A stretch of 11,516 nt of DNA, from the IMG/VR virus record IMGVR_UViG_2778261454_000012; one strand, 5' to 3'. Both the position numbers and the translations under genes were made by a program. The notes beneath the pieces were generated by a model. That model was not told where the DNA came from. It worked only from the letters and a program-made list of their open reading frames with translations, and ran no database searches. Of this stretch, positions 1-11,516 are shown in pieces. The number at the start of each line of letters is the position of its first letter. Position 1 is the stretch's first letter. This stretch comes from a virus (taxonomy: Duplodnaviria > Heunggongvirae > Uroviricota > Caudoviricetes).

Positions 1-443
1 TGAAACGTAAAACACTGCCTCTGCTGGCGCTGGTTGCCACCACTCTGTTTCTCATCGCATGCGATGACAGAAGTGATGACCTGAAGGCCATCAGTAAATT
101 TAAGGACCTCACCCCACCGCGTTTCAGTGATGTGGTCAGCCACCAGGATGATGTCAGCGAAGAATGGTCACAGGTTGACTACTTATCCGGTCCCACCTTG
201 CAGGTTTTACGTACCCGCCAGTCGCCCGATGGCTGCGAGGATGGCAGTTACTACTACCTCGTGGATATGCAGGAAAAAACCGTCCAGCCACTGATGAATG
301 CGCTGTGTATTGCCGATAACATCAAACTGGAATACCAGGAGGTGACGGACCCGTATACCAAAGAAAAATACTTTGAGTACGCCCATGACGGCAAACTGAT
401 GGGGCGACTGCTGATACCCTCAAACCCTGACAATCAGGAATAA
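1..443 (+). CDS. yafY: Inner-membrane lipoprotein, YafY/YfjS family (5' partial: window starts at the 2nd base of the ATG)
   Basis: Frame from position 3 reads KRKTLPLLALVATTLFLIAC-DD and continues into track ORF 132..443. Lipobox LIAC with Asp at +2 is the inner-membrane retention signal (established for YafY/YfjS). Position upstream of the ykfB-ykfF-yafX block matches CP4-6 gene order from memory. Confidence 0.6.
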   Translation, partial: KRKTLPLLALVATTLFLIACDDRSDDLKAISKFKDLTPPRFSDVVSHQDDVSEEWSQVDYLSGPTLQVLRTRQSPDGCEDGSYYYLVDMQEKTVQPLMNALCIADNIKLEYQEVTDPYTKEKYFEYAHDGKLMGRLLIPSNPDNQE

Positions 444-465
444 AACAACGATAAAGGAGACAAGA

Positions 466-933
466 ATGACAATACTTTCACTAAGTCGGTTTATGCTGGC
501 GGGTGTACTGCTCGCGAGCTTTAATGCCTCTGCTATCCCGGGGTTCTGGCAGCAGGGTTACGGTCAGGGCAATACGGAATACAGCGTGACCGAAGCCAGC
601 GGAAAGACGTTTACCATCAACTGCACAGGGAACCCGGACCAGAATGGTTTCTATCAGCATTCAGTCTTTCTTACCCTTGCCGATGACAAGATGGTCAGTT
701 CGCACGATGACGACACTACTATCACCGTAGTGATGGATCACCAGCAGTACATTATTCCGTCCAGCCTGGGCTGGCGTAACGGCGATAACGCCTGGTTTGA
801 CTTCATCAGCAATATCTCTGAGGCCGGGCAGTTCGACGTCTACGTCAATGACCACAAAGCAGGGACCTTCACTGCGGACCGGAAGAACGCTGAGAAAGTT
901 CTGTCCACTCTCGGAGACTGCAGCAACGACTGA
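466..933 (+). CDS. Secreted/periplasmic protein with N-terminal signal peptide (YkfB-like by position)
   Basis: 155-aa ORF. AAGGAG at 454-459, 6 nt before the ATG. N-terminus [23 protein letters not shown] is hydrophobic and signal-peptide-like. Followed by hairpin terminator at 960-994. Confidence 0.6.
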
Positions 934-959
934 TAGTAGCATCTTCCCCAGCAAATCCA

Positions 960-994
960 CCCCGACAGCTAGCAGGCTGCCGGGGTTTTCTTTT
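960..994 (+). terminator. Rho-independent terminator-like hairpin
   Basis: ccccgacagc / gctgccgggg stem (9 of 10 bp) with 6-nt loop, followed by ttttctttt. Confidence 0.5.
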
Positions 995-1009
995 ATCAGG
1001 AGCCCGAAA

Positions 1010-1249
1010 ATGACCCAATCCGTGTTGCTGCCACCGGGGCCTTTCACCCGGAGACAAGCGCAAGCGGTCACTACCACGTACAGCAATATCACACTCGAAG
1101 ACGACCAGGGCAGTCACTTCCGTCTGGTGGTTCGTGATACTGAAGGCCGGATGGTCTGGCGGGCATGGAACTTTGAGCCGGATGCCGGTGAAGGTCTTAA
1201 CCGCTATATCCGCACCTCAGGCATCCGTACAGACACGGCCACCCGCTGA
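1010..1249 (+). CDS. ykfF: DUF905-family small protein (YkfF-like), 79 aa
   Basis: Internal ATG at 1010 preceded by AGGAG (998-1002). Product [20 protein letters not shown]... is 79 aa; the longer track ORF 797..1249 overlaps the upstream gene and is rejected. Gene order matches CP4-6. Confidence 0.6.
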
Positions 1250-1302
1250 TCGCGAAGCATTTACCCGCATTCACCTCCCCGAACACACTTTATATCCCCA
1301 TA

Positions 1303-1328
1303 CGCCAGCCATCGCCGCTGGCGTTTTT
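1303..1328 (+). terminator. Rho-independent terminator-like hairpin
   Basis: cgccagc / gctggcg 7-bp stem, 7-nt loop, then ttttt. Confidence 0.5.
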
Positions 1329-1346
1329 ATTGACGGAGACATACCC

Positions 1347-1805
1347 ATGATAACACAGACGCAGCACGACCTCGCACCCGCTAACCAACCCGAATTTGAA
1401 CTGACCGTCACGCCGGTCCCCGATGAACAGCGTATCGATTTCTGGCCACAGTACTTTGGCGCTATCCCGCAGTGGCTACTCCTGGAGCCGCATATCTTCG
1501 CCTGGATGGACCGCTTCTGTGAGGGCTACAGCGGTGGTATCTGGTCGTTCTACACCCTCAGCAATGGCGGCGCATTTATGTCCCCCGAGCCTGACAACGA
1601 TGAGACATGGCGTCTGTTTAACTGCCTGAACGGTAACGATGCCCAAATGAGTGCAGAAGCAGCAGGTATTGCTGTCTGCCTGATTGCGTATAGCCACCAT
1701 GCCTGCCGTACAGAATGTGACGCGATGACCGCACACTATTACCGCCTGCGGGAGTATGCCATGCAACATCCAGAGGCTCACGCCATTCTGCGTATTATCG
1801 ACTGA
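1347..1805 (+). CDS. yafX: Antirestriction protein, ArdB/KlcA-like (YafX/YfjX/YeeS-type), 152 aa
   Basis: ATG at 1347 with GGAGA 7 nt upstream. Product MITQTQHDLAPANQPEFELTV...EAHAILRIID matches the conserved CP4-type antirestriction protein from memory. The track ORF 1134..1805 N-terminal extension is rejected. Confidence 0.7.
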   Translation: MITQTQHDLAPANQPEFELTVTPVPDEQRIDFWPQYFGAIPQWLLLEPHIFAWMDRFCEGYSGGIWSFYTLSNGGAFMSPEPDNDETWRLFNCLNGNDAQMSAEAAGIAVCLIAYSHHACRTECDAMTAHYYRLREYAMQHPEAHAILRIID

Positions 1806-1820
1806 CCGAAGGAGCAACAG

Positions 1821-2297
1821 ATGAAACAGCTTTCCTTTTTACCCGGCGAGATGACGCCACAGGACCGGCGTCTCATTCAGCGGGCGCTCAGGGCTCTGGA
1901 CCGCCACCTGCATGAGCCCGGCGTAGCCTTCACCTCTACCCACGCCGTACGTGAATGGCTGCGACTGCATATGGCCGCGCTTGAGCGGGAAGAGTTCCGG
2001 GTGTTGTATCTGGACAACCAGAATCAGTTGATTGCCCATGAAACGCTCTTCACCGGCACGATTAACCGCACCGAGGTGCATCCCCGGGAGGTGGTCAAAC
2101 GTGCTCTGCACTTCAACGCGGCGGCGGTGATACTCGCGCATAACCATCCTTCCGGCGAGACGACACCTAGCCAGGCCGACAAAACCCTCACGCAGCGACT
2201 GGTTCAGGTGCTTCAGCTGGTGGATATCCGTGTCCCTGACCATCTGATTGTCGGTGGCAGGCAAATCTATTCGTTCGCAGAACACGGTCTGCTTTGA
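1821..2297 (+). CDS. ykfG: RadC-like JAB-domain protein (YkfG/YfjY/YeeS family), 158 aa
   Basis: AAGGAG RBS before ATG 1821. Contains the JAMM-like motif region ...AAAVILAHNHPSGETTPSQAD... (HNHPSG is the RadC/JAB signature). Confidence 0.75.
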   Translation: MKQLSFLPGEMTPQDRRLIQRALRALDRHLHEPGVAFTSTHAVREWLRLHMAALEREEFRVLYLDNQNQLIAHETLFTGTINRTEVHPREVVKRALHFNAAAVILAHNHPSGETTPSQADKTLTQRLVQVLQLVDIRVPDHLIVGGRQIYSFAEHGLL

Positions 2298-2305
2298 GGT
2301 ATTAC

Positions 2306-2527
2306 ATGAAAATTATCAGTAAACGCAGGGCAATGACGATATACCGCCAGCATCCTGAGTCCCGAATCTTTCGCTACTGCACCGGCAAATACCAGTGGCA
2401 CGGTAGCGTCTGTCATTACACCGGCAGGGACGTTCCGGATATCGCCGGAGTCCTCGCGGTATACGCCGAACGCCGCCAGGACCGCAATGGGCCCTATACC
2501 TGCCTGATGAGCATCACCCTGAACTGA
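2306..2527 (+). CDS. ykfH: DUF987-family small protein (YkfH/YeeT/YfjZ-neighbour type), 73 aa
   Basis: Internal ATG at 2306 gives MKIISKRRAMTIYRQHPESRIFRYCTGKYQWHG..., 73 aa, with GAGG upstream. Conserved partner immediately upstream of the CbeA-type antitoxin. Confidence 0.6.
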   Translation: MKIISKRRAMTIYRQHPESRIFRYCTGKYQWHGSVCHYTGRDVPDIAGVLAVYAERRQDRNGPYTCLMSITLN

Positions 2528-2545
2528 CAATAGTGGAGAACTGTA

Positions 2546-3225
<680 letters not shown>

Positions 3226-3290
3226 ACATTGCGTACAACCTTCCCGATTTACATTTCTGAACTTCCTCCCTTGTTTACCTATTGCGTAAT

Positions 3291-3326
3291 GCGCCTGCTA
3301 CTACCCGGCAGGCGCGTTATCTTTTT
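3291..3326 (+). terminator. Rho-independent terminator downstream of the toxin gene
   Basis: gcgcctgc / gcaggcgc perfect 8-bp stem, 9-nt loop, followed by gttatcttttt. Confidence 0.6.
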
Positions 3327-3596
3327 ACGGACAAACAATCATGCAACCAGAAGTTGAAGTATTAACCGATCATAATGAGCTAATTTGTTCGAGCTTTATT
3401 GAACACATTGCCAACACATTAAATTTAGGAGTGGTGTACAACTAAACCTGCAGCCAAGGATGTATAGTGAGCGAAGCCCTATCAGGCCTTTTTGGTCAGT
3501 AGATAAGATTGATCTTCGTTGATAGAATTTACTTACACCAGCTGTTACATTAAGATAATTTTTTGGTGGGAGAATGATAAGATCTTACGTAACAAT

Positions 3597-3652
3597 TTGA
3601 TTTTAATGGTGCCGATAATAGGAGTCGAACCTACGACCTTCGCATTACGAAT
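3597..3652 (-). repeat. att-type direct repeat: partial copy of the thrW 3' part (46 nt of tRNA from the anticodon loop to CCA, plus 10 bp of flank)
   Basis: 3597-3652 matches 10063-10118 with one mismatch (3604 t vs 10070 a). Identity stops exactly at attacgaat (anticodon loop). Sequence diverges on both sides. Confidence 0.85.
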
Positions 3653-3843
3653 CTGTAGCACCAATCATAACTATCTGTTTTAGCAAGCATTAACCGCATT
3701 CACTAAGCTATAGTTGATGGCACAAACAGAAAGTTGATGCATGATGTTGTCATGTATATGTCACAAATACGGCACAACGATCTTCAAACATGTAGCCACA
3801 CATCCACAGAAGAGCACAAAGCCTTGCAATCCAGTGCAACGCT

Positions 3844-4071
3844 TTGTGTACCATAGTTTTTCCTTATCAACTACCGCAAGTATCGATCGATGGAGGCTTG
3901 GATGTTAAATTTCATGACTTTGATCACTTGGTGCATCACGAAACTATCGAAGTGCAACTCGCTCATGCCAACGGCGGATCTGTGCGTGGGATTTACAACC
4001 ATGCTCAGTATCTCGATAAGCGCAGAGAAATGATGCAGTGGTGGGCGGATTGGATTGATGAGAAGGCGTGA
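3844..4071 (+). pseudogene. C-terminal fragment of a P4-family tyrosine integrase (remnant)
   Basis: Translation ...KFHDFDHLVHHETIEVQLAHANGGSVRGIYNHAQYLDKRREMMQWWADWIDEKA carries the P4-type C-terminal signature (E-x-x-LAH...VRG-x-YN-x-x-Y...RR-x-MMQ-x-WAD). The frame is open only from 3796 (TAG at 3793-3795); track start is a TTG. The N-terminal ~300 aa are absent. Confidence 0.6.
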
Positions 4072-4165: not shown

Positions 4166-5215
4166 ATGAAAAATAATAGCATCCAGATAGCAAGGGCGAT
4201 TGCCGCGTTACTTGTAGTGTTTCACCATTTGTTTATACCAATATTCCATAGAGATAATGCCTACACAGATTATCTGAAGCATTTTAATTTTAGCTTCATC
4301 GGTGATTATGCCGTTTATGTTTTTTTCTGTATAAGCGGTTACGTAATGATGATGTCAACGACAAAAAAGCATAAAGGATCGATATCTTTCCTGAGTGACA
4401 GAATATTAAGAATCTATCCTTCGTATATTATATGGACAGTTATCGCCATTGCTTTAGTATACATTGGCAGAGTAATTGGCTATGAAATTGTTAGATTTAA
4501 AAATATTCCTCATAATGTTGTGGATATGATTCAGGTATTGCTTTTGTTGCCTTCTATTTCTGACCACAGCAACTACGCCATGACTTTGCCAACAGCATGG
4601 TCACTTGTGTATGAAATGTATTACTACGTTGTATTTGCTCTATTACTTAAATTTATTAGTGTTCGTAATATCCCGTATGCTCTCATGGGTATATTTGCTT
4701 TATCTTCGTTTGTTATTAACTCAAACTTCCCTCAGGGTAGGTACGGTTGGGTGAATTTATGGTACATTATTGGGGACTATGCGAATATATGTTTTGCATC
4801 GGGGGCGCTGATATATAACATAACAAACAACATCAATAATCCAATAAAATACAAACACCTCCCAATTGCGATTGTATTATTATTTGCGGTATTGCTATCT
4901 TCCAATAACGGCTCACTATACCAAATAAATATAATCATGATGTCAATTACAACGTTCATTTTATTTCTTTTTAGTGACTTTGGGAGTGGTGTGCTTTCTA
5001 GATGTTTTTCATATATCGGTGATGCATCGTATAGTATATACATAACCCACATGCTATTTAATTTAGCGGCTTGGAATTCTTGGACTCAGTATAGCAGTTT
5101 GGTTGGTGCCTTTGGAATTTCTATAACATCAATAGTATTTGGGATTATAGCTTACGAATTCCTTGAAAAACCATTAACGATGGCGTCCAGAACTTTAAAG
5201 CAAAGAGTTGCTTAA
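4166..5215 (+). CDS. Acyltransferase-3 family integral membrane protein, O-antigen/LPS O-acetyltransferase-like (Oac/OafA-type)
   Basis: 349 aa, many hydrophobic segments. N-terminal IARAIAALLVVFHH and RILRIYPSYIIW motifs are typical of the AT3 family. Strongly AT-rich. Convergent with the tailspike-like gene, next to the att repeat, as in Sf6-type conversion modules. Confidence 0.7.
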   Translation: MKNNSIQIARAIAALLVVFHHLFIPIFHRDNAYTDYLKHFNFSFIGDYAVYVFFCISGYVMMMSTTKKHKGSISFLSDRILRIYPSYIIWTVIAIALVYIGRVIGYEIVRFKNIPHNVVDMIQVLLLLPSISDHSNYAMTLPTAWSLVYEMYYYVVFALLLKFISVRNIPYALMGIFALSSFVINSNFPQGRYGWVNLWYIIGDYANICFASGALIYNITNNINNPIKYKHLPIAIVLLFAVLLSSNNGSLYQINIIMMSITTFILFLFSDFGSGVLSRCFSYIGDASYSIYITHMLFNLAAWNSWTQYSSLVGAFGISITSIVFGIIAYEFLEKPLTMASRTLKQRVA

Positions 5216-5245: not shown

Positions 5246-7210
5246 TTAGGGGTTTCTGACCTGCCATACTTTGTCATAGCCGTGCGTATACCCACATCGT
5301 GTAACGGTTAGGTGTACTATTGCCATTGATAGAGTAGGCGTATCAAACCGGAAGCGAATATACGTCCCTCCGTTTACTACCTGCTTTACAACGTTAATTC
5401 CTGTTAGATTTTTGTCTCCTGGATCATAATTTGTCCATATATTGCCTGCTGAGGATATATCTGATTGCGTTGTACCAGAAACAGTTGCCAGAATCCTGCC
5501 ACCGGAACCTGATGATGTAACCCCGGATTTTCCAACAGGAAAAATGATTGCTTCCACGCATAAAAAATTCCCGCCAGGCGTCTTGGTTTCCTCCCCCACT
5601 GCGGTAAGGAAAACATCAAGTGATGCACCATATGGAACGATAACCGTCCCCTTGTCTGTAGATACATTGTTAAAAACAGCATTACTGTTGTAGTTTACTG
5701 CCGAAAGAACAGCCCCAATTCTGTTATTAGATATGCTATTTGAGGATTCAGTTCCGTACCACCTTCCATTTATTTTTACGCTTTGCGCCTTGGTAGAGTT
5801 CATTTTAGATGCAGTTACCGAGCTAACAAATCTAAATGTATCCTTGATCTCAAAACCACGGCATTGATTAATGTTGCTGTCGTTGCTATTGACAAAGAAC
5901 TGTACCGCCCTATCGGTCTTTATCATCCCTGTTTGGAATACTGCCATTCCTAATACGTTTGTTGCATTGTCAGGAGTTTTAACCACGGATGTTACTGTTG
6001 AGTCTCGTGTAGTCTGAATCCAACAATCAACAGCATCAAAATATATAGCAGATCGTTCAGTTTCAGCAAATGGTGAGAAATCAAATAACGTATCACCCCT
6101 AACCCCTTCAATACCTAATCCAGTTATTTTTAAATCTCTCCCCCTGTAAAATTTGTGTGGGGTAATACACATATCTGCGGCAATATTATTTGCCGCAACG
6201 TACATCAATACCTCATCATCTGAGAATGCGGGAATTTTTGATACCCTATCATAGGTTGCTCCCCAACAAAAACCGACTCCGCATCTTAATGCCCACGCAG
6301 CTGATAGATTTATAGATGTTGCAACTAGGGTCATGCCAAAGTTGCATGAATACATGAATACTCTGTCGCTTTCAGATACGAAACATGACAATGCCAGACC
6401 AACATTGTATCTCATGAGGTTTACATTGTTTATTTTATATTGCTGCCCACCTCCGGAAGGTTGCCCTAACTCTGAGTTACCTGAAATTACTAGAGGGCAG
6501 CCAACAGTTTCCTCATCGGCATTAACAAAGCCAATGTTTTCAACCAATAATTCATGACACCATGTTGCACAGAAGAAACCGCCGTCTCCGGATGTGTATA
6601 TTACTGAGTGGAGCGGGTTTGTGCCGAAAATATTTAACGAGTACCCATCCCATCTTTTCGCAGTAATATCAATTGAGGTATCGCCAATATACATAGGGCT
6701 ATCAATAAAGATTGGCATGTATGTATTATAGGCCGCAATCAATGCTGCGCTGTCGTTTGTTACCCCAGTCAGGTCAGGCCTAGGCATATCCGTGTCGTGA
6801 TTAATATCATGAACATCAACTTTTGGCGCATCCATCCACGCGCCAAACATACGAGGTGTTACGTACCCCTTCCCTTGCAGATCTCGTTTCCAGCGTTTAC
6901 CACCCGCAGTGACAATGACCATGCCGTTATCATCTGCAGAAGTCGAATCTGTGAAATCGGCCACAAACAGACCACCACCAGTATCACCTGATACTGTCGG
7001 CTTCATGCCTGTAGTGTGGAAGTCGACGAAAATCTTTTGCTGATCTCGCTCAGGCTCAATTGTCCTTAACATTGCTATATCAGGGCATGTCCCGATGTAT
7101 TTAAGACCGTCTTCATTGCCGTCCCATAAAGGAGGTGATGCGGATGTTTTTCTTTTATCGCTACTTGTAACATCAGGAATAGCGATTACTTCTATTGTTG
7201 TTTTCTTCAA
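5246..7210 (-). CDS. Tailspike-like right-handed beta-helix protein (putative polysaccharide depolymerase/receptor-binding protein), 654 aa; start uncertain
   Basis: Long clean ORF. Around residues 115-150, GYVTPRMFGA...LTGVTNDSAALIAAYN resembles the pectate-lyase-fold entry motif (FGA...G-x-TDD-x-AA). Many Asn/Gly-rich repeats downstream. Position and orientation match a P22/Sf6 tailspike. The only start at the ORF head is TTG at 7208-7210, with no Shine-Dalgarno and a stop just upstream. Confidence 0.5.
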   Translation of the reverse strand: MKKTTIEVIAIPDVTSSDKRKTSASPPLWDGNEDGLKYIGTCPDIAMLRTIEPERDQQKIFVDFHTTGMKPTVSGDTGGGLFVADFTDSTSADDNGMVIVTAGGKRWKRDLQGKGYVTPRMFGAWMDAPKVDVHDINHDTDMPRPDLTGVTNDSAALIAAYNTYMPIFIDSPMYIGDTSIDITAKRWDGYSLNIFGTNPLHSVIYTSGDGGFFCATWCHELLVENIGFVNADEETVGCPLVISGNSELGQPSGGGQQYKINNVNLMRYNVGLALSCFVSESDRVFMYSCNFGMTLVATSINLSAAWALRCGVGFCWGATYDRVSKIPAFSDDEVLMYVAANNIAADMCITPHKFYRGRDLKITGLGIEGVRGDTLFDFSPFAETERSAIYFDAVDCWIQTTRDSTVTSVVKTPDNATNVLGMAVFQTGMIKTDRAVQFFVNSNDSNINQCRGFEIKDTFRFVSSVTASKMNSTKAQSVKINGRWYGTESSNSISNNRIGAVLSAVNYNSNAVFNNVSTDKGTVIVPYGASLDVFLTAVGEETKTPGGNFLCVEAIIFPVGKSGVTSSGSGGRILATVSGTTQSDISSAGNIWTNYDPGDKNLTGINVVKQVVNGGTYIRFRFDTPTLSMAIVHLTVTRCGYTHGYDKVWQVRNP

Positions 7211-7290: not shown

Positions 7291-7316
7291 AGGCCGCATA
7301 GTCGGCCTTCATTTTT
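7291..7316 (+). terminator. Terminator-like hairpin (plus orientation) in the junction region
   Basis: aggccg / cggcct 6-bp stem, 6-nt loop catagt, then tcattttt. Confidence 0.4.
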
Positions 7317-7474: not shown

Positions 7475-8443
7475 ATGAGTGAAGTAACAGATTTAGTTGT
7501 TATTGAAAAAGCAAATGCAATGACTGTATTTCAGTCTGCCGACCAGATTGAAGAAATCCTTCAAAAGGTTGAACGTGAAGTTATGTCCTTTGTGCCTGAT
7601 ATCACAACGGCAAAGGGCAGAAAGGAGATCGCTTCTCTGGCGTATAAAGTTGCGCAGACGAAAACATATCTCGATGGCCTTGGCAAAGACCTTGTTGCTG
7701 AACTGAAGGAAATTCCAAAGCTAATTGATGCCAACCGCAAGACAGTACGCGATCGCCTTGATGAACTGAAAGCCAAGGCGCGCCAGCCTCTTACTGATTA
7801 TGAGGAAGAACAGGCGCGGATTAAAGCCGAAGAAGAAGCTAAGGCAGCAGCTGAAGCTCTCGCAAAGCAAATTGAGTCTGACCATGAAATAGCGATTTTG
7901 ATGGATCGCGAATTTGACCGCCAAAGAGAAGAGGCAAGACTCAAAGCGGAGCAGGAAAAGCGAGAGCATGAAGAACGCTTAAAAAGAGAAGCTGAAGAGA
8001 AAGCCAGAGCAGAAGCCGAAGCAAAGGCAAAAGCCGAAATTGAAGCAGCAGCAAGGCGAGAAGCAGAAGCTAAGGCAGCAGCGGAACGTGCAGAGCGTGA
8101 ACGCATTGAAGCTGAGCAACGAGCACAGCGCGAAGCAAAAGAGGCAGCAGAACGAGCTGAAAGAGAAAAGCAGGCGGCAATTGAAGCAGAACGCCGAAAA
8201 GCACAGGAGGAGGCTGAACGAATCCGGCGCGAGGCTGAAGCAAAAGAGCAAGCCAGAATAGCAGAAGAAAAAAGAATCAAGGACGAAGAAGAGCGTAGAG
8301 CAAAGGATAAAGCTCACCGGAAAGAAGTAAATAACAAAATACTTGCTGACCTTATCAAGGTTGGCGCATCAGAAGATGTTGCTAAAAATATCATAACAGC
8401 CATCGTAAAAGGCGAAGTATTCGCAACAAAAATAACCTACTAA
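7475..8443 (+). CDS. Phage early-region protein with a long ER/K-rich charged alpha-helical (coiled-coil or single-alpha-helix) segment, 322 aa
   Basis: ATG at 7475 with GGAGG (7466-7470). N-terminal domain MSEVTDLVVIEK...; central ~150 aa is almost only E/A/K/R/Q in heptad-like repeats (AEEKARAEAEAKAKAEIEAAARREAEAKAAAERAERER...); short C-terminal domain. The upstream 18 codons of track ORF 7421 begin with TTG and are rejected. Confidence 0.65.
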   Translation: MSEVTDLVVIEKANAMTVFQSADQIEEILQKVEREVMSFVPDITTAKGRKEIASLAYKVAQTKTYLDGLGKDLVAELKEIPKLIDANRKTVRDRLDELKAKARQPLTDYEEEQARIKAEEEAKAAAEALAKQIESDHEIAILMDREFDRQREEARLKAEQEKREHEERLKREAEEKARAEAEAKAKAEIEAAARREAEAKAAAERAERERIEAEQRAQREAKEAAERAEREKQAAIEAERRKAQEEAERIRREAEAKEQARIAEEKRIKDEEERRAKDKAHRKEVNNKILADLIKVGASEDVAKNIITAIVKGEVFATKITY

Positions 8444-8467
8444 TAAAACCAACATAAGGAACCACCC

Positions 8468-8599
8468 ATGATTCACGCAATCGCGGGAGGCGCTCGCATG
8501 GGTGCCTTCCAACTAAATGAATCTTTACTTGAACGAATCACCCGTAAATTACGTGACGGATGGAAAAGAGTTGAGGTCTTATTATGCGCAATGAAATAG
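8468..8599 (+). CDS. Small hypothetical early protein, 43 aa
   Basis: ATG at 8468 with AAGGA 8 nt upstream. MIHAIAGGARMGAFQLNESLLERITRKLRDGWKRVEVLLCAMK. Overlaps the next ORF. Confidence 0.35.
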   Translation: MIHAIAGGARMGAFQLNESLLERITRKLRDGWKRVEVLLCAMK

Positions 8600-8736
8600 C
8601 CATCAATCACCAGATGCTTCGTGCAGCACAGAACAAAGCAGTAATAGCCAGATTTATTGGTGATTCAAAAATGTGGATTGAAGCAAATAAAGCGATGAAA
8701 TCAGCTATCAACCTTCCGTGGTATCGCAGGAAATGA
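8584..8736 (+). CDS. Small hypothetical early protein, 50 aa
   Basis: ATG at 8584 with GAGG upstream. MRNEIAINHQMLRAAQNKAVIARFIGDSKMWIEANKAMKSAINLPWYRRK. Stop overlaps the next start (ATGA). Confidence 0.4.
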   Translation: MRNEIAINHQMLRAAQNKAVIARFIGDSKMWIEANKAMKSAINLPWYRRK

Positions 8737-8891
8737 GTTTTACAGATAACTGGTCAGACGAAGAATTCATTCGTCAGATGAAAGAATTAATCGGTAACGA
8801 AGGAGATATTCATGTCACTTGCAACCACAGTGAAGGAGAGCAAGTTACAGAGACGCATGTACACGCAGAAAGCTCTCTGGTATCGCCATAA
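8733..8891 (+). CDS. Small hypothetical early protein, 52 aa, acidic
   Basis: ATGA overlap with the preceding ORF (translational coupling). MSFTDNWSDEEFIRQMKELIGNEGDIHVTCNHSEGEQ.... Overlaps the 8812 ORF in another frame, so one of the two may be spurious. Confidence 0.3.
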   Translation: MSFTDNWSDEEFIRQMKELIGNEGDIHVTCNHSEGEQVTETHVHAESSLVSP

Positions 8892-8982
8892 TGGCGACCG
8901 CGAAGGAATGCGGGTATGCCTTAATTTGTCCCGAGTCGAAGTATTAAATCAGCGTTATTTCCTTGGGCCGTGTCCATTCTGA
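8812..8982 (+). CDS. Small hypothetical early protein, 56 aa
   Basis: ATG at 8812 with AGGAG 6 nt upstream. MSLATTVKESKLQRRMYTQKALWYRHNGDREGMRVCLNLSRVEVLNQRYFLGPCPF. Ends 8 nt before the next gene. Confidence 0.45.
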   Translation: MSLATTVKESKLQRRMYTQKALWYRHNGDREGMRVCLNLSRVEVLNQRYFLGPCPF

Positions 8983-8990
8983 GGTGAATT

Positions 8991-9698
8991 ATGGATTTGA
9001 ACAAATTCGATGAGCCATTCAGCCCTGAAGATATCGAATGGCGAATACAGCAAAGCGGTAAAACACGCGATGGCAAGGTGTGGGCTATGGTGCTGGCTTA
9101 TGTCACGAACAGGGCAATCATGAAACGCCTGGACGATGTTTGCGGCAAAGCAGGATGGCGCAATGAATACCGCGATATTCCCAACAACGGCGGCGTTGAA
9201 TGCGGCATATCAATCAGGATTGATTCCGAATGGGTAACCAAATGGGATGCTGCTGAAAACACGCAGGTAGAAGCCGTCAAAGGTGGTCGTTCCGGTGCAA
9301 TGAAGCGCGCTGCCGTTCAGTGGGGAATCGGTCGGTATCTGTATAACATTGAGGAAGGTTTCGCACAAACATCTCTCGATAAAAAGCAGGGATGGCACAG
9401 GGCAAAACTCAAGGATGGAACAGGATTTTACTGGCTCCCTCCATCGCTGCCGGGATGGGCAATCCCAGCATCAGATAACAAACCATCACCAGAAAATACC
9501 AACCAGAAATCTCCATCGGTTGACTGCGAGCAAATCCTGAAAGACTTCAGCGATTATGCGTCAACAGAAACTGACAAGAAAAAACTCATCGAGCGTTATC
9601 AGCGTGACTGGCAATTAATGGCTGGCAACGAGGAGGCGCAGGCTAAATGCGTTCAGGTAATGAACATCAGAGTTAACGAACTAAAACAGGCGGCATAA
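8991..9698 (+). CDS. Single-strand annealing protein, Rad52/Rad22 (Sak-like) family, 235 aa
   Basis: GAGGTG RBS. Contains ...GVECGISIRIDSEW...KGGRSGAMKRAAVQWGIGRYLYN..., the Rad52/22-type GIGRYLY signature. Followed directly (TAAATG) by an ssb start. Confidence 0.7.
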   Translation: MDLNKFDEPFSPEDIEWRIQQSGKTRDGKVWAMVLAYVTNRAIMKRLDDVCGKAGWRNEYRDIPNNGGVECGISIRIDSEWVTKWDAAENTQVEAVKGGRSGAMKRAAVQWGIGRYLYNIEEGFAQTSLDKKQGWHRAKLKDGTGFYWLPPSLPGWAIPASDNKPSPENTNQKSPSVDCEQILKDFSDYASTETDKKKLIERYQRDWQLMAGNEEAQAKCVQVMNIRVNELKQAA

Positions 9699-10058
9699 AT
9701 GGCAAGCAGAGGCGTAAATAAGGTGATTATCCTTGGTCGGGTAGGACAAGACCCGGAAGTTCGATACTCACCATCAGGAACAGCGTTCGCTAAGGGAGCG
9801 TTAAAGCGGGCAGGCATTAGCAACTTCCGCTTCCATGATCTGAGGCATACCTGGGCAAGCTGGCTGGTTCAGTCCGGTGTCTCTCTTCTTGCACTTAAAG
9901 AGATGGGAGGATGGGAAACTCTCGAAATGGTTCAAAGATACGCCCACCTTTCAGCCGGGCATCTCACCGAGCACGCAAGCAAAATCGATGCGATTATAAG
10001 TCGCAATGGCACAAATACGGCACAAGAGGAGAACGTGGTTTACTTAAATGCTAGGTAA
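9699..10058 (+). pseudogene. In-frame chimera: SSB N-terminus (about 29 aa) fused to C-terminal catalytic segment of a tyrosine integrase (about 90 aa)
   Basis: [29 protein letters not shown] is the canonical SSB N-terminus. From about codon 30 the product reads ...[48 protein letters not shown]..., the box II region (H-x-x-R ... Y) of phage integrases. Ends 14 bp before the thrW 3' end, convergent with it. Confidence 0.75.
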
Positions 10059-10072
10059 CTTATTGATTTAAA

Positions 10073-10148
10073 TGGTGCCGATAATAGGAGTCGAACCTAC
10101 GACCTTCGCATTACGAATGCGCTGCTCTACCAACTGAGCTATATCGGC
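10073..10148 (-). tRNA. thrW: tRNA-Thr (anticodon CGU)
   Basis: Reverse complement reads GCCGATATAGCTCAGTTGGTAGAGCAGCGCATTCGTAATGCGAAGGTCGTAGGTTCGACTCCTATTATCGGCACCA, 76 nt. It has the D-arm GCTCAGTTGGTAGAGC, anticodon loop with CGT, T-arm GGTTCGACTCC and encoded CCA. Confidence 0.95.
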
Positions 10149-10262
10149 CCTGAAAGGACATGTTCACGAACGTGAATCACGGTGGACAAGGTTAAAACTA
10201 ACCGGGCGATGCGTCAATGGCCTTGTGAATCAAATGGCTACTTTTGCATCACCCGGTTTTAT

Positions 10263-11516
10263 TTACGCACGAATGGTGTAATCACCAATGCCGATCCACT
10301 TGTAAGTGGTCAGTGCTTCCAGCCCCATTGGGCCACGCGCGTGGAGTTTTTGTGTGCTTACCGCCACTTCCGCACCCAGACCAAACTGGCCGCCGTCGGT
10401 AAAACGCGTAGAGGCGTTAACGTAAACAGCGGACGAATCCACTTCGTTAACAAAACGCTGGGCGTTGCGCATATCGCGGGTCAGGATCGCATCGGAGTGT
10501 TGTGTGCCGTGTTCACGAATATGGGCGATGGCATCGTCAAGATCGCTGACGATTTTGACGTTCAAATCTAATGACAGAAACTCATCGTCATACTCTTCGG
10601 CTTTAACAGCAACCACCTTCGCAGGGCCTGCCTGCAACTGCGCCAGTGCAGCTGCATCTGCGTGTAATGTCACGCCGCTTTCCGCCATTTGTTTGCTTAA
10701 TGCGGGCAGGAAGCTATCGGCGATGTTTTTATTCACCAGCAACGTTTCAACCGTATTACATGTGCTCGGACGCTGAGTTTTCGCGTTGACGATCACTTTT
10801 AATGCTTCAGCGATCTCTACACTTTCATCAACGTAAATATGGCATACGCCTATACCACCTGTGATCACCGGGATTGTCGACTGTTCACGGCACAGTTTAT
10901 GCAAACCAGCGCCACCACGCGGGATCAGCATGTCGATGTATTTATCCATACGCAGCATTTCACTGACCAGCGCACGGTCAGGATTATCAATCGCCTGCAC
11001 GGCACCCGCCGGTAAGCCGCAGGATTTCAGGGCGTCCTGAATCACCGCCACCGTTGCAGCGTTAGTGCGACACGTTTCTTTGCCACCGCGCAGGATCACC
11101 GCATTACCGGTTTTCAGGCACAGCGAAGCGACATCAACCGTCACGTTCGGGCGCGCTTCATAAATCACGCCAATAACCCCCAGCGGTACGCGACGACGCT
11201 CAAGACGCAGGCCGCTGTCCAGTACGCCGCCATCGATTACCTGCCCCACCGGATCGGCGAGGTTGCACACCTGACGTACATCGTCGGCAATGCCTTTCAG
11301 CCGTGCGGGCGTCAGTGCCAGACGGTCAAGCATCGCTTCGCTAAGGCCATTGGCTCGCGCGTCAGCAACATCCTGGGCGTTAGCGTTGAGGATGATTTCG
11401 CTTTGTGCTTCCAGTTCATCGGCGATTTTTTCCAGCACGCGATTTTTTTCGCGGCTGGAGAGTTGCGCTAATTTATACGAGGCTTGCTTCGCGGCAATGC
11501 CCATTTGTTCCAGCAT
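10263..11516 (-). CDS. proA: Gamma-glutamyl phosphate reductase (proline biosynthesis), 417 aa, complete
   Basis: Translation [38 protein letters not shown]...[12 protein letters not shown] matches E. coli ProA in full. Start codon is the last three bases of the window. Confidence 0.97.

Follow-up and report, generated by a model that had tools for sequence, protein, structure and literature searches.

In an 11,516-nt window (the whole stretch of DNA analysed here), a 119-aa ORF very probably marks where a deletion closed up a decaying P22-like/lambdoid prophage at thrW, and its product, if made, would be inactive. The preliminary description had read this ORF as an ssb–integrase chimera lying immediately downstream of a Rad52-like gene, and it exists as described: both halves are found by Pfam and by DNA identity, and the stop codon of the Rad52/Rad22 gene abuts the chimera ATG (TAAATG), an abutment also seen in intact phages. 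The case is one of ordinary prophage decay, a deletion-derived fusion pseudogene of a well-known kind, and no new protein family is involved. The deposited protein identical to the chimera, WP_097475699.1, is named only "tyrosine-type recombinase/integrase". Coordinates of the features discussed are collected in Table 1.

Table 1. Positions in the window of the chimera, its two parts and the surrounding prophage remnant
Feature	Position	Strand	Basis or remark
attR core: partial thrW copy, far end of the remnant	3597-3652		Repeat of 10063-10118
3' scar of IntS-type integrase, last 42 codons (IEVQLAHANGG...WIDEKA, then stop)	3944-4071 (within 3844-4071)		Homology
Acyl_transf_3 acyltransferase	4166-5215	+	argW prophage match
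Tailspike without its first ~120 codons	5246-7114	-	argW prophage match
Surviving early-left (pL) operon: 322-aa coiled-coil protein, cIII, kil, 56-aa ORF	7475-8982	+	Gene calls, Pfam labels
Rad52/Rad22-family single-strand annealing gene, intact, 235 aa	8991-9698	+	Pfam PF04098, E 2.2e-25
ssb::int chimera ORF	9699-10058	+	ATG start, 119 aa
5' ssb fragment, 31 codons + 2 nt	9699-9793	+	95/95 nt identity, homology ending at 9793
Deletion junction, dinucleotide AA common to both parents	9792-9793	+	Ungapped comparisons, BLAST end points 9793 and 9792
3' fragment of thrW-type (P22/HK75-like) tyrosine integrase, last 88 codons + stop	9792-10058	+	262-266/267 identity
attL core: 3' 46 nt of thrW + 10 nt	10063-10118		Direct repeat, 55/56 identity
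thrW, tRNA-Thr (CGT), integration target	10073-10148	-	ARAGORN; 14 nt past the chimera stop
proA	10263-11516	-	Beyond thrW; int-tRNA-Thr-proA-proB order also in annotated genomes

Ungapped comparison identifies the 5' part of the ORF as the opening 95 nt of ssb, with no mismatch in E. coli 19451123 (L009), E. coli E10 (L002), L003 or phage HK75, and the 3' part as the final 267 nt of int, the comparators being four annotated full-length int genes adjacent to thrW. The chimeric protein consists of SSB residues 1–31 followed by the last 88 integrase residues; it thus keeps 31 of about 153–168 ssb residues and 88 of 384 int residues (297–384, numbered from the annotated start of the comparator gene). 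The N-terminal origin of the ssb share and the C-terminal origin of the int share had been correctly recognized, as had the removal of about three quarters of int (77% is gone), while the sizes first given, ~29 codons of ssb and ~90 residues of integrase, are revised to 31 codons plus 2 nt and to 88 residues. With Pfam, chimera residues 6–32 match SSB (PF00436) over profile positions 1–27 of 104 only, at 27.3 bits (E 3.9e-6), a marginal score against a cut-off of 26 bits; residues 30–86 match Phage_integrase (PF00589) over profile positions 113–170 of 172 only, at 59 bits (E 6.4e-16). The SSB origin is nevertheless settled, because the DNA is identical to annotated ssb at 95 of 95 positions, which excludes a chance match.

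That both Pfam domains score above cut-off in a single ORF might suggest a natural two-domain family with SSB-like and integrase-like parts, but each match covers a terminal quarter of its profile only, and the halves are about 99–100% identical in DNA to separate full-length genes. Moreover, none of 5,426 complete E. coli genomes covers at least 80% of a junction-spanning query. Among the matches listed from a search of 5.8 billion protein clusters, the two halves are covered together only by the chimera's own 90%-identity cluster, which has three members; the other matches listed contain the integrase part alone. The genome count and this lone cluster rule out a natural fusion family, a reading to which we give scarcely any credence.

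The breakpoint can be placed to within 2 nt. A megablast query of 8991–9800 against the 5,426 complete E. coli genomes retrieves 403 in which a Rad52-family gene precedes ssb (the DNA being 99% identical and the product annotated as a Rad52/Rad22 family protein), and in all of the best 25 matches listed, homology stops at window position 9793. The query 9500–10200 retrieves site-specific integrase genes adjoining tRNA-Thr, with homology running from 9792 in the best 30 matches listed. Parent ssb reads ...TTCGCTAA (also written ...GTTCGCTAA) up to the breakpoint and CCTGAC beyond it, parent int reads ...GGCATGG before it and AAGGGAGCG after it, and the junction reads ...GTTCGCT[AA]GGGAGCG, in which the AA can be assigned to either parent. 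Both halves are therefore collinear with separate intact genes in close relatives, and homology switches within 2 nt at one sharp breakpoint. Comparing each half separately with its closest intact gene and mapping the breakpoint, both proposed earlier, thus gave nearly 100% nucleotide identity for ssb and for int, and a single point with 2 nt of microhomology. Ungapped comparison with the parents revealed no microhomology or repeat at the breakpoint beyond this AA; a nearby AGCGTT repeat does not coincide with the breakpoint.

Over its full 11,516 nt the window matches NODD01000031.1, a contig of the E. coli draft genome GCA_002518125.1, with 100% identity. A draft source could raise the suspicion of an assembly or chimeric-contig artefact, yet an identical 70-nt junction is present in all five contigs compared, which were assembled separately from different samples: two belong to NCBI isolate assemblies, one to a JGI metagenome and two to Logan SRA assemblies. 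An artefact is ruled out by this shared 70-mer, as nearly to certainty as such a comparison allows. In their overlap with the window, the carrier contigs compared show 100% identity except for one indel difference in contig L007, and the exact 119-aa protein is encoded on six contigs. Carrier genomes include GCA_022538985.1 as well as GCA_002518125.1. By these comparisons the junction is confined to one near-clonal E. coli lineage and is not conserved across diverged genomes.

Intact relatives have the same gene order as the window, with the missing genes in place: Rad52-like gene, ssb, accessory genes, xis, int. The undeleted arrangement at thrW that the preliminary description suggested looking for is found in the prophage of E. 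coli 19451123 (NZ_CP191548.1), which occupies the same chromosomal site (int-thrW-proA-proB) and has the same operon from the 322-aa gene onward, with identities to the window of 98.7% on the left side of the junction and 99.3% on the right side. Its early-left order starts with the 322-aa protein, cIII, kil, a small ORF, the Rad52-like gene and ssb, continues with anti-RecBCD, DUF2737, an ead fragment, two small ORFs and an HTH (xis-like) gene, and ends with int, after which come tRNA-Thr, proA and proB. Unlike the window, this prophage retains intact ssb, the xis-like HTH gene and int, and cI, cII and Ral are still present upstream. The genes at 7475–8982 of the window are all full length, equal in length to those of 19451123 and 98.7% identical to them. 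In phage HK75 (HM173637) and its relatives mEpX2 and ECP1, the early-left operon is made up of the Rad52-like gene, ssb, abc2 and accessory genes, followed by xis and int; mEpX2 and ECP1, too, hold both chimera parts within one genome. HK75 matches the window in the same order, with 96.6% identity from cIII through kil and the Rad52-like gene into the 5' end of ssb and 98.8% over the int 3' end and att core, and shares the attP region, but has a full 168-aa SSB, four accessory genes, an annotated excisionase and a full integrase. The segment missing from the window between ssb nt 95 and int nt -267 measures 2,976 bp by comparison with HK75, 3,789 bp with E. coli 19451123 and 8,663 bp, IS100 included, with E. 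coli E10. A direct ancestor with identical flanks was not found, the best comparators being 0.4–1.3% different.

These relatives bear out the earlier proposal that a deletion took out most of ssb, the accessory genes, xis and most of int, and suggest the following route. The ancestor would have had an early-left operon of 322-aa protein, cIII, kil, Rad52-like gene, ssb, anti-RecBCD and small accessory genes, xis and int, with int followed by attL in thrW. Illegitimate (homology-independent) recombination, using the 2-nt AA microhomology, would then have joined ssb nt 95 to a point 267 nt before the end of int, removing about 3–4 kb, or more if the ancestor bore extra cargo. The ssb and int frames would have coincided by chance, with a prior of 1/3, so that the in-frame outcome needs no special explanation, and since they coincide, gene callers see one 119-aa ORF and label it integrase. 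Given undeleted relatives with the same order, a single deletion in such an ancestor is sufficient; the single deletion claimed earlier stands as the simplest reading rather than a proven one, as a junction records the last event only.

The ORF lies at one end of a remnant of ~6.5 kb, measured from attR core to attL core, with int at the tRNA-proximal end. The two att cores are identical at 55 of 56 positions, and their 46 nt of tRNA sequence are identical; the attR flank (3586–3860) is 93.5% identical to the HK75 attP region (6256–6529). No head, tail, lysis, replication or immunity genes are left in the remnant. The preliminary description held that the prophage is locked in place; this is right in cis, but both att cores survive, and a related phage could provide Int and Xis in trans and so excise the element. 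The claim adds little in any event, since nearly all of the prophage except these 6.5 kb has already gone. We also note a 20-nt direct repeat, ATG[T/G]CACAAATACGGCACAA, whose two copies (19/20 identical) lie at 3758–3777, in the attR-side arm, and at 10006–10025, close to attL within the 3' coding sequence of int. Both copies are candidate arm-type sites for integrase binding, and because the second lies inside the int tail, the chimera coding sequence would overlap att function.

Phages P22, ST64T and ST104 integrate in thrW (PMC2629481), and int at one end with an O-antigen modification gene at the other is the arrangement of Shigella flexneri serotype-converting phages at thrW/argW (PMC3630932). 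The remnant resembles defective serotype-converting prophages in that its int remnant adjoins attL/thrW and its acyltransferase and tailspike adjoin attR; it differs from them in that the int end is here an in-frame ssb::int fusion and an O-antigen role of the acyltransferase is putative. The oac1b remnant has lost recombination, immunity, replication and lysis functions (PMC3630932), and the same functions are lost here. Together the IntS scar, acyltransferase and tailspike form a contiguous match, at 99.75% identity, to an argW prophage in E. coli mip270_04 that has both IntS and a 742-aa tailspike intact. With an HK75-like, thrW-type attP core and arm (3586–3860) just upstream of the scar, the match points to an ancestral phage that exchanged its integration module but retained a piece of its former int.

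Such mosaicism bears on whether the ssb::int junction could have taken several steps to arise, or have joined two elements instead of parts of one prophage, for instance by a deletion spanning tandem thrW prophages or by recombination of a superinfecting phage with a resident remnant. The remnant combines modules of different origin, an IntS scar among them, and thrW has tandem elements in the window: beyond attR, positions 1–3590 hold the end of a CP4-6-like island (YfjT, DUF905, antirestriction, RadC and DUF987, together with the CbeA antitoxin and CbtA toxin), so that thrW bears two tandem integrated elements in the carrier strain. Tandem arrays in relatives are hinted at by E. coli E10, where an attP-arm flank follows the att core: after int and att core, E10 18736–18803 matches the attR-side phage arm of the window (3653–3664) rather than the body of thrW, a sign that thrW of this strain may carry tandem or permuted elements. 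Against such routes, ssb and int lie in cis in HK75, mEpX2, ECP1 and the 19451123 prophage, the remnant, read from attR to attL, has its genes in the order of one P22-like prophage, and one deletion suffices. We therefore consider an origin in several steps or from two elements unlikely.

A working SSB forms a DNA-binding oligomer through a complete OB-fold domain (~104 profile positions) and recruits partner proteins through an acidic C-terminal tip (..DD[ED]IPF). The full catalytic set of a tyrosine recombinase comprises Arg-I, Lys, His, Arg-II, His/Trp and Tyr, and integrases of this kind need N-terminal arm-binding and core-binding domains to recognize att DNA. The chimera has one beta strand's worth of the OB fold (profile positions 1–27 of 104) and lacks the acidic tip: it ends in integrase sequence (...VVYLNAR), whereas intact SSBs end in ...FDDEIPF (L002) or in ...FDDDIPF with a 15-residue extension (L003). 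On the integrase side, motifs were placed by aligning the intact integrase to HP1 integrase (1AIH) and to the XerC-like 4A8E. The chimera keeps HDLRH (H-x-x-R; His and Arg-II), GW (the His/Trp position) and RYAH (catalytic Tyr); the RYAH catalytic-tyrosine region named in the preliminary description is indeed present, with the motif corrected to QRYAHL. In the same alignments, the GLRRS arginine (Arg-I) and the beta-hairpin Lys map upstream of integrase residue 297 and are deleted, and with residues 1–296 the arm-binding and core-binding domains are absent. The int half descends from the thrW-specific P22/HK75-type gene, a statement of homology and not of activity. With an SSB stub too short for an OB fold and no tip, and with Arg-I, Lys and the DNA-binding domains missing, we infer that the product cannot be active either as an SSB or as a recombinase.

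Two further fusions belong to the chimera's cluster. P0002 (261 aa) is a triple fusion, in which ~155 N-terminal residues of the 322-aa protein are followed by ssb from codon ~15 onward and then by int; P0003 (110 aa) has a different upstream junction at nearly the same ssb codon as P0002, the two independent junctions lying within a few nt of each other. Both are further derivatives, and show that the chimera ORF is already undergoing more deletions within its lineage. P0004 (196 aa, from an ENA contig) resembles the chimera in that its C-terminal ~90 int residues are 100% identical and are in frame with the N-terminal part of a pL-operon gene, but its partner is a lambda-N-like antiterminator (PF11438), and its breakpoint lies ~5 codons further upstream in int. 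The different partner and breakpoint make P0004 an independent event, and int-tail fusions next to thrW thus recur. Many short int tails raised the idea of a breakpoint hot spot in int, which we reject: a recurring length of 97 aa is explained by an internal Met (MRTDSNKAW...), and true int-tail junctions vary (-88, -93 and about -150 codons).

Could the chimera nonetheless be a selected functional protein, such as an Int C-terminal fragment coupled to the annealing gene that poisons Int tetramers of incoming thrW-specific phages or stabilizes the remnant? Its frame is open, the native ssb start and TAAATG coupling are retained, the upstream genes are intact, and Int C-terminal fragments adjoining thrW recur in databases; in principle, selection and not chance could lie behind the in-frame join and the preserved upstream genes. 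Yet the recurrent 97-aa fragments reflect the internal Met and the junction positions vary by case, the carriers form a single near-clonal lineage, whose sequences do not vary and so can reveal no constraint, and within that lineage the ORF has been eroded by the P0002 and P0003 deletions. Nor does a consensus scan support a promoter: it finds one weak sigma-70 site (8739–8766) against 4.0 expected by chance in shuffled sequence, and no site upstream of the 322-aa gene. The remnant lacks pL, N and cI, and a terminator-like hairpin lies upstream of the chimera at 7291–7308. Expression of the chimera, which the preliminary description thought possible, is therefore hypothetical. We accordingly hold a selected function to be very unlikely. 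The particular version in which the fusion is made by coupling to the Rad52-like gene, and its int tail (H-x-x-R, W, Y and the C-terminal segment) is dominant-negative on the integrases of incoming or co-resident thrW-specific phages, is likewise very unlikely; if true, it would lower integration or excision of thrW phages, so that the acyltransferase-bearing remnant would be protected. A thrW terminator inside the int tail was also considered as a reason for its retention, and rejected: only a 5-bp stem is present (10005–9989, minus strand), with a folding z of -1.36.

Taken as a deletion scar, the junction offers a clean example, mapped to the base pair, of prophage decay by short-homology-independent deletions. 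Because it is in frame, the scar has entered protein databases as a plausible integrase, and the record WP_097475699.1 ought to carry a pseudogene or fusion flag. The shared junction is also a handy clonal marker for the carrier E. coli lineage, and the nested derivatives P0002 and P0003 and the L007 variant give the order of decay events. Biological importance would arise only if the fragment interferes with related integrases; otherwise the case matters little beyond bookkeeping.

The remnant bears further marks of rearrangement and repetition. The 654-aa "tailspike" ORF at 5246–7210 (minus strand) is itself a junction product, in which homology ends at 7114 and unrelated sequence then replaces the N-terminal codons. 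At this tailspike junction (~7114–7125), contig L007 (SRR33282647) has 1,012 bp extra, including a gp16-like 3' piece, and the window 12-mer CATTGCCGTCCC (7114–7125) is found at offset 223 inside this insert. As a 12-mer from inside the L007 insert survives in the window, the deletion behind the tailspike scar was a complex one, sparing a 12-bp island. In E. coli E10, the early-left operon is interrupted by IS100. The 322-aa gene at the head of the surviving operon (7475–8443) encodes a Lys/Glu/Ala-rich coiled coil, with degenerate GAAGCnnAAGC... repeats at 7829–8273; the protein has no Pfam match, other genomes label it variously "TolA" or "coiled-coil domain-containing", and its full length is conserved in pL operons.
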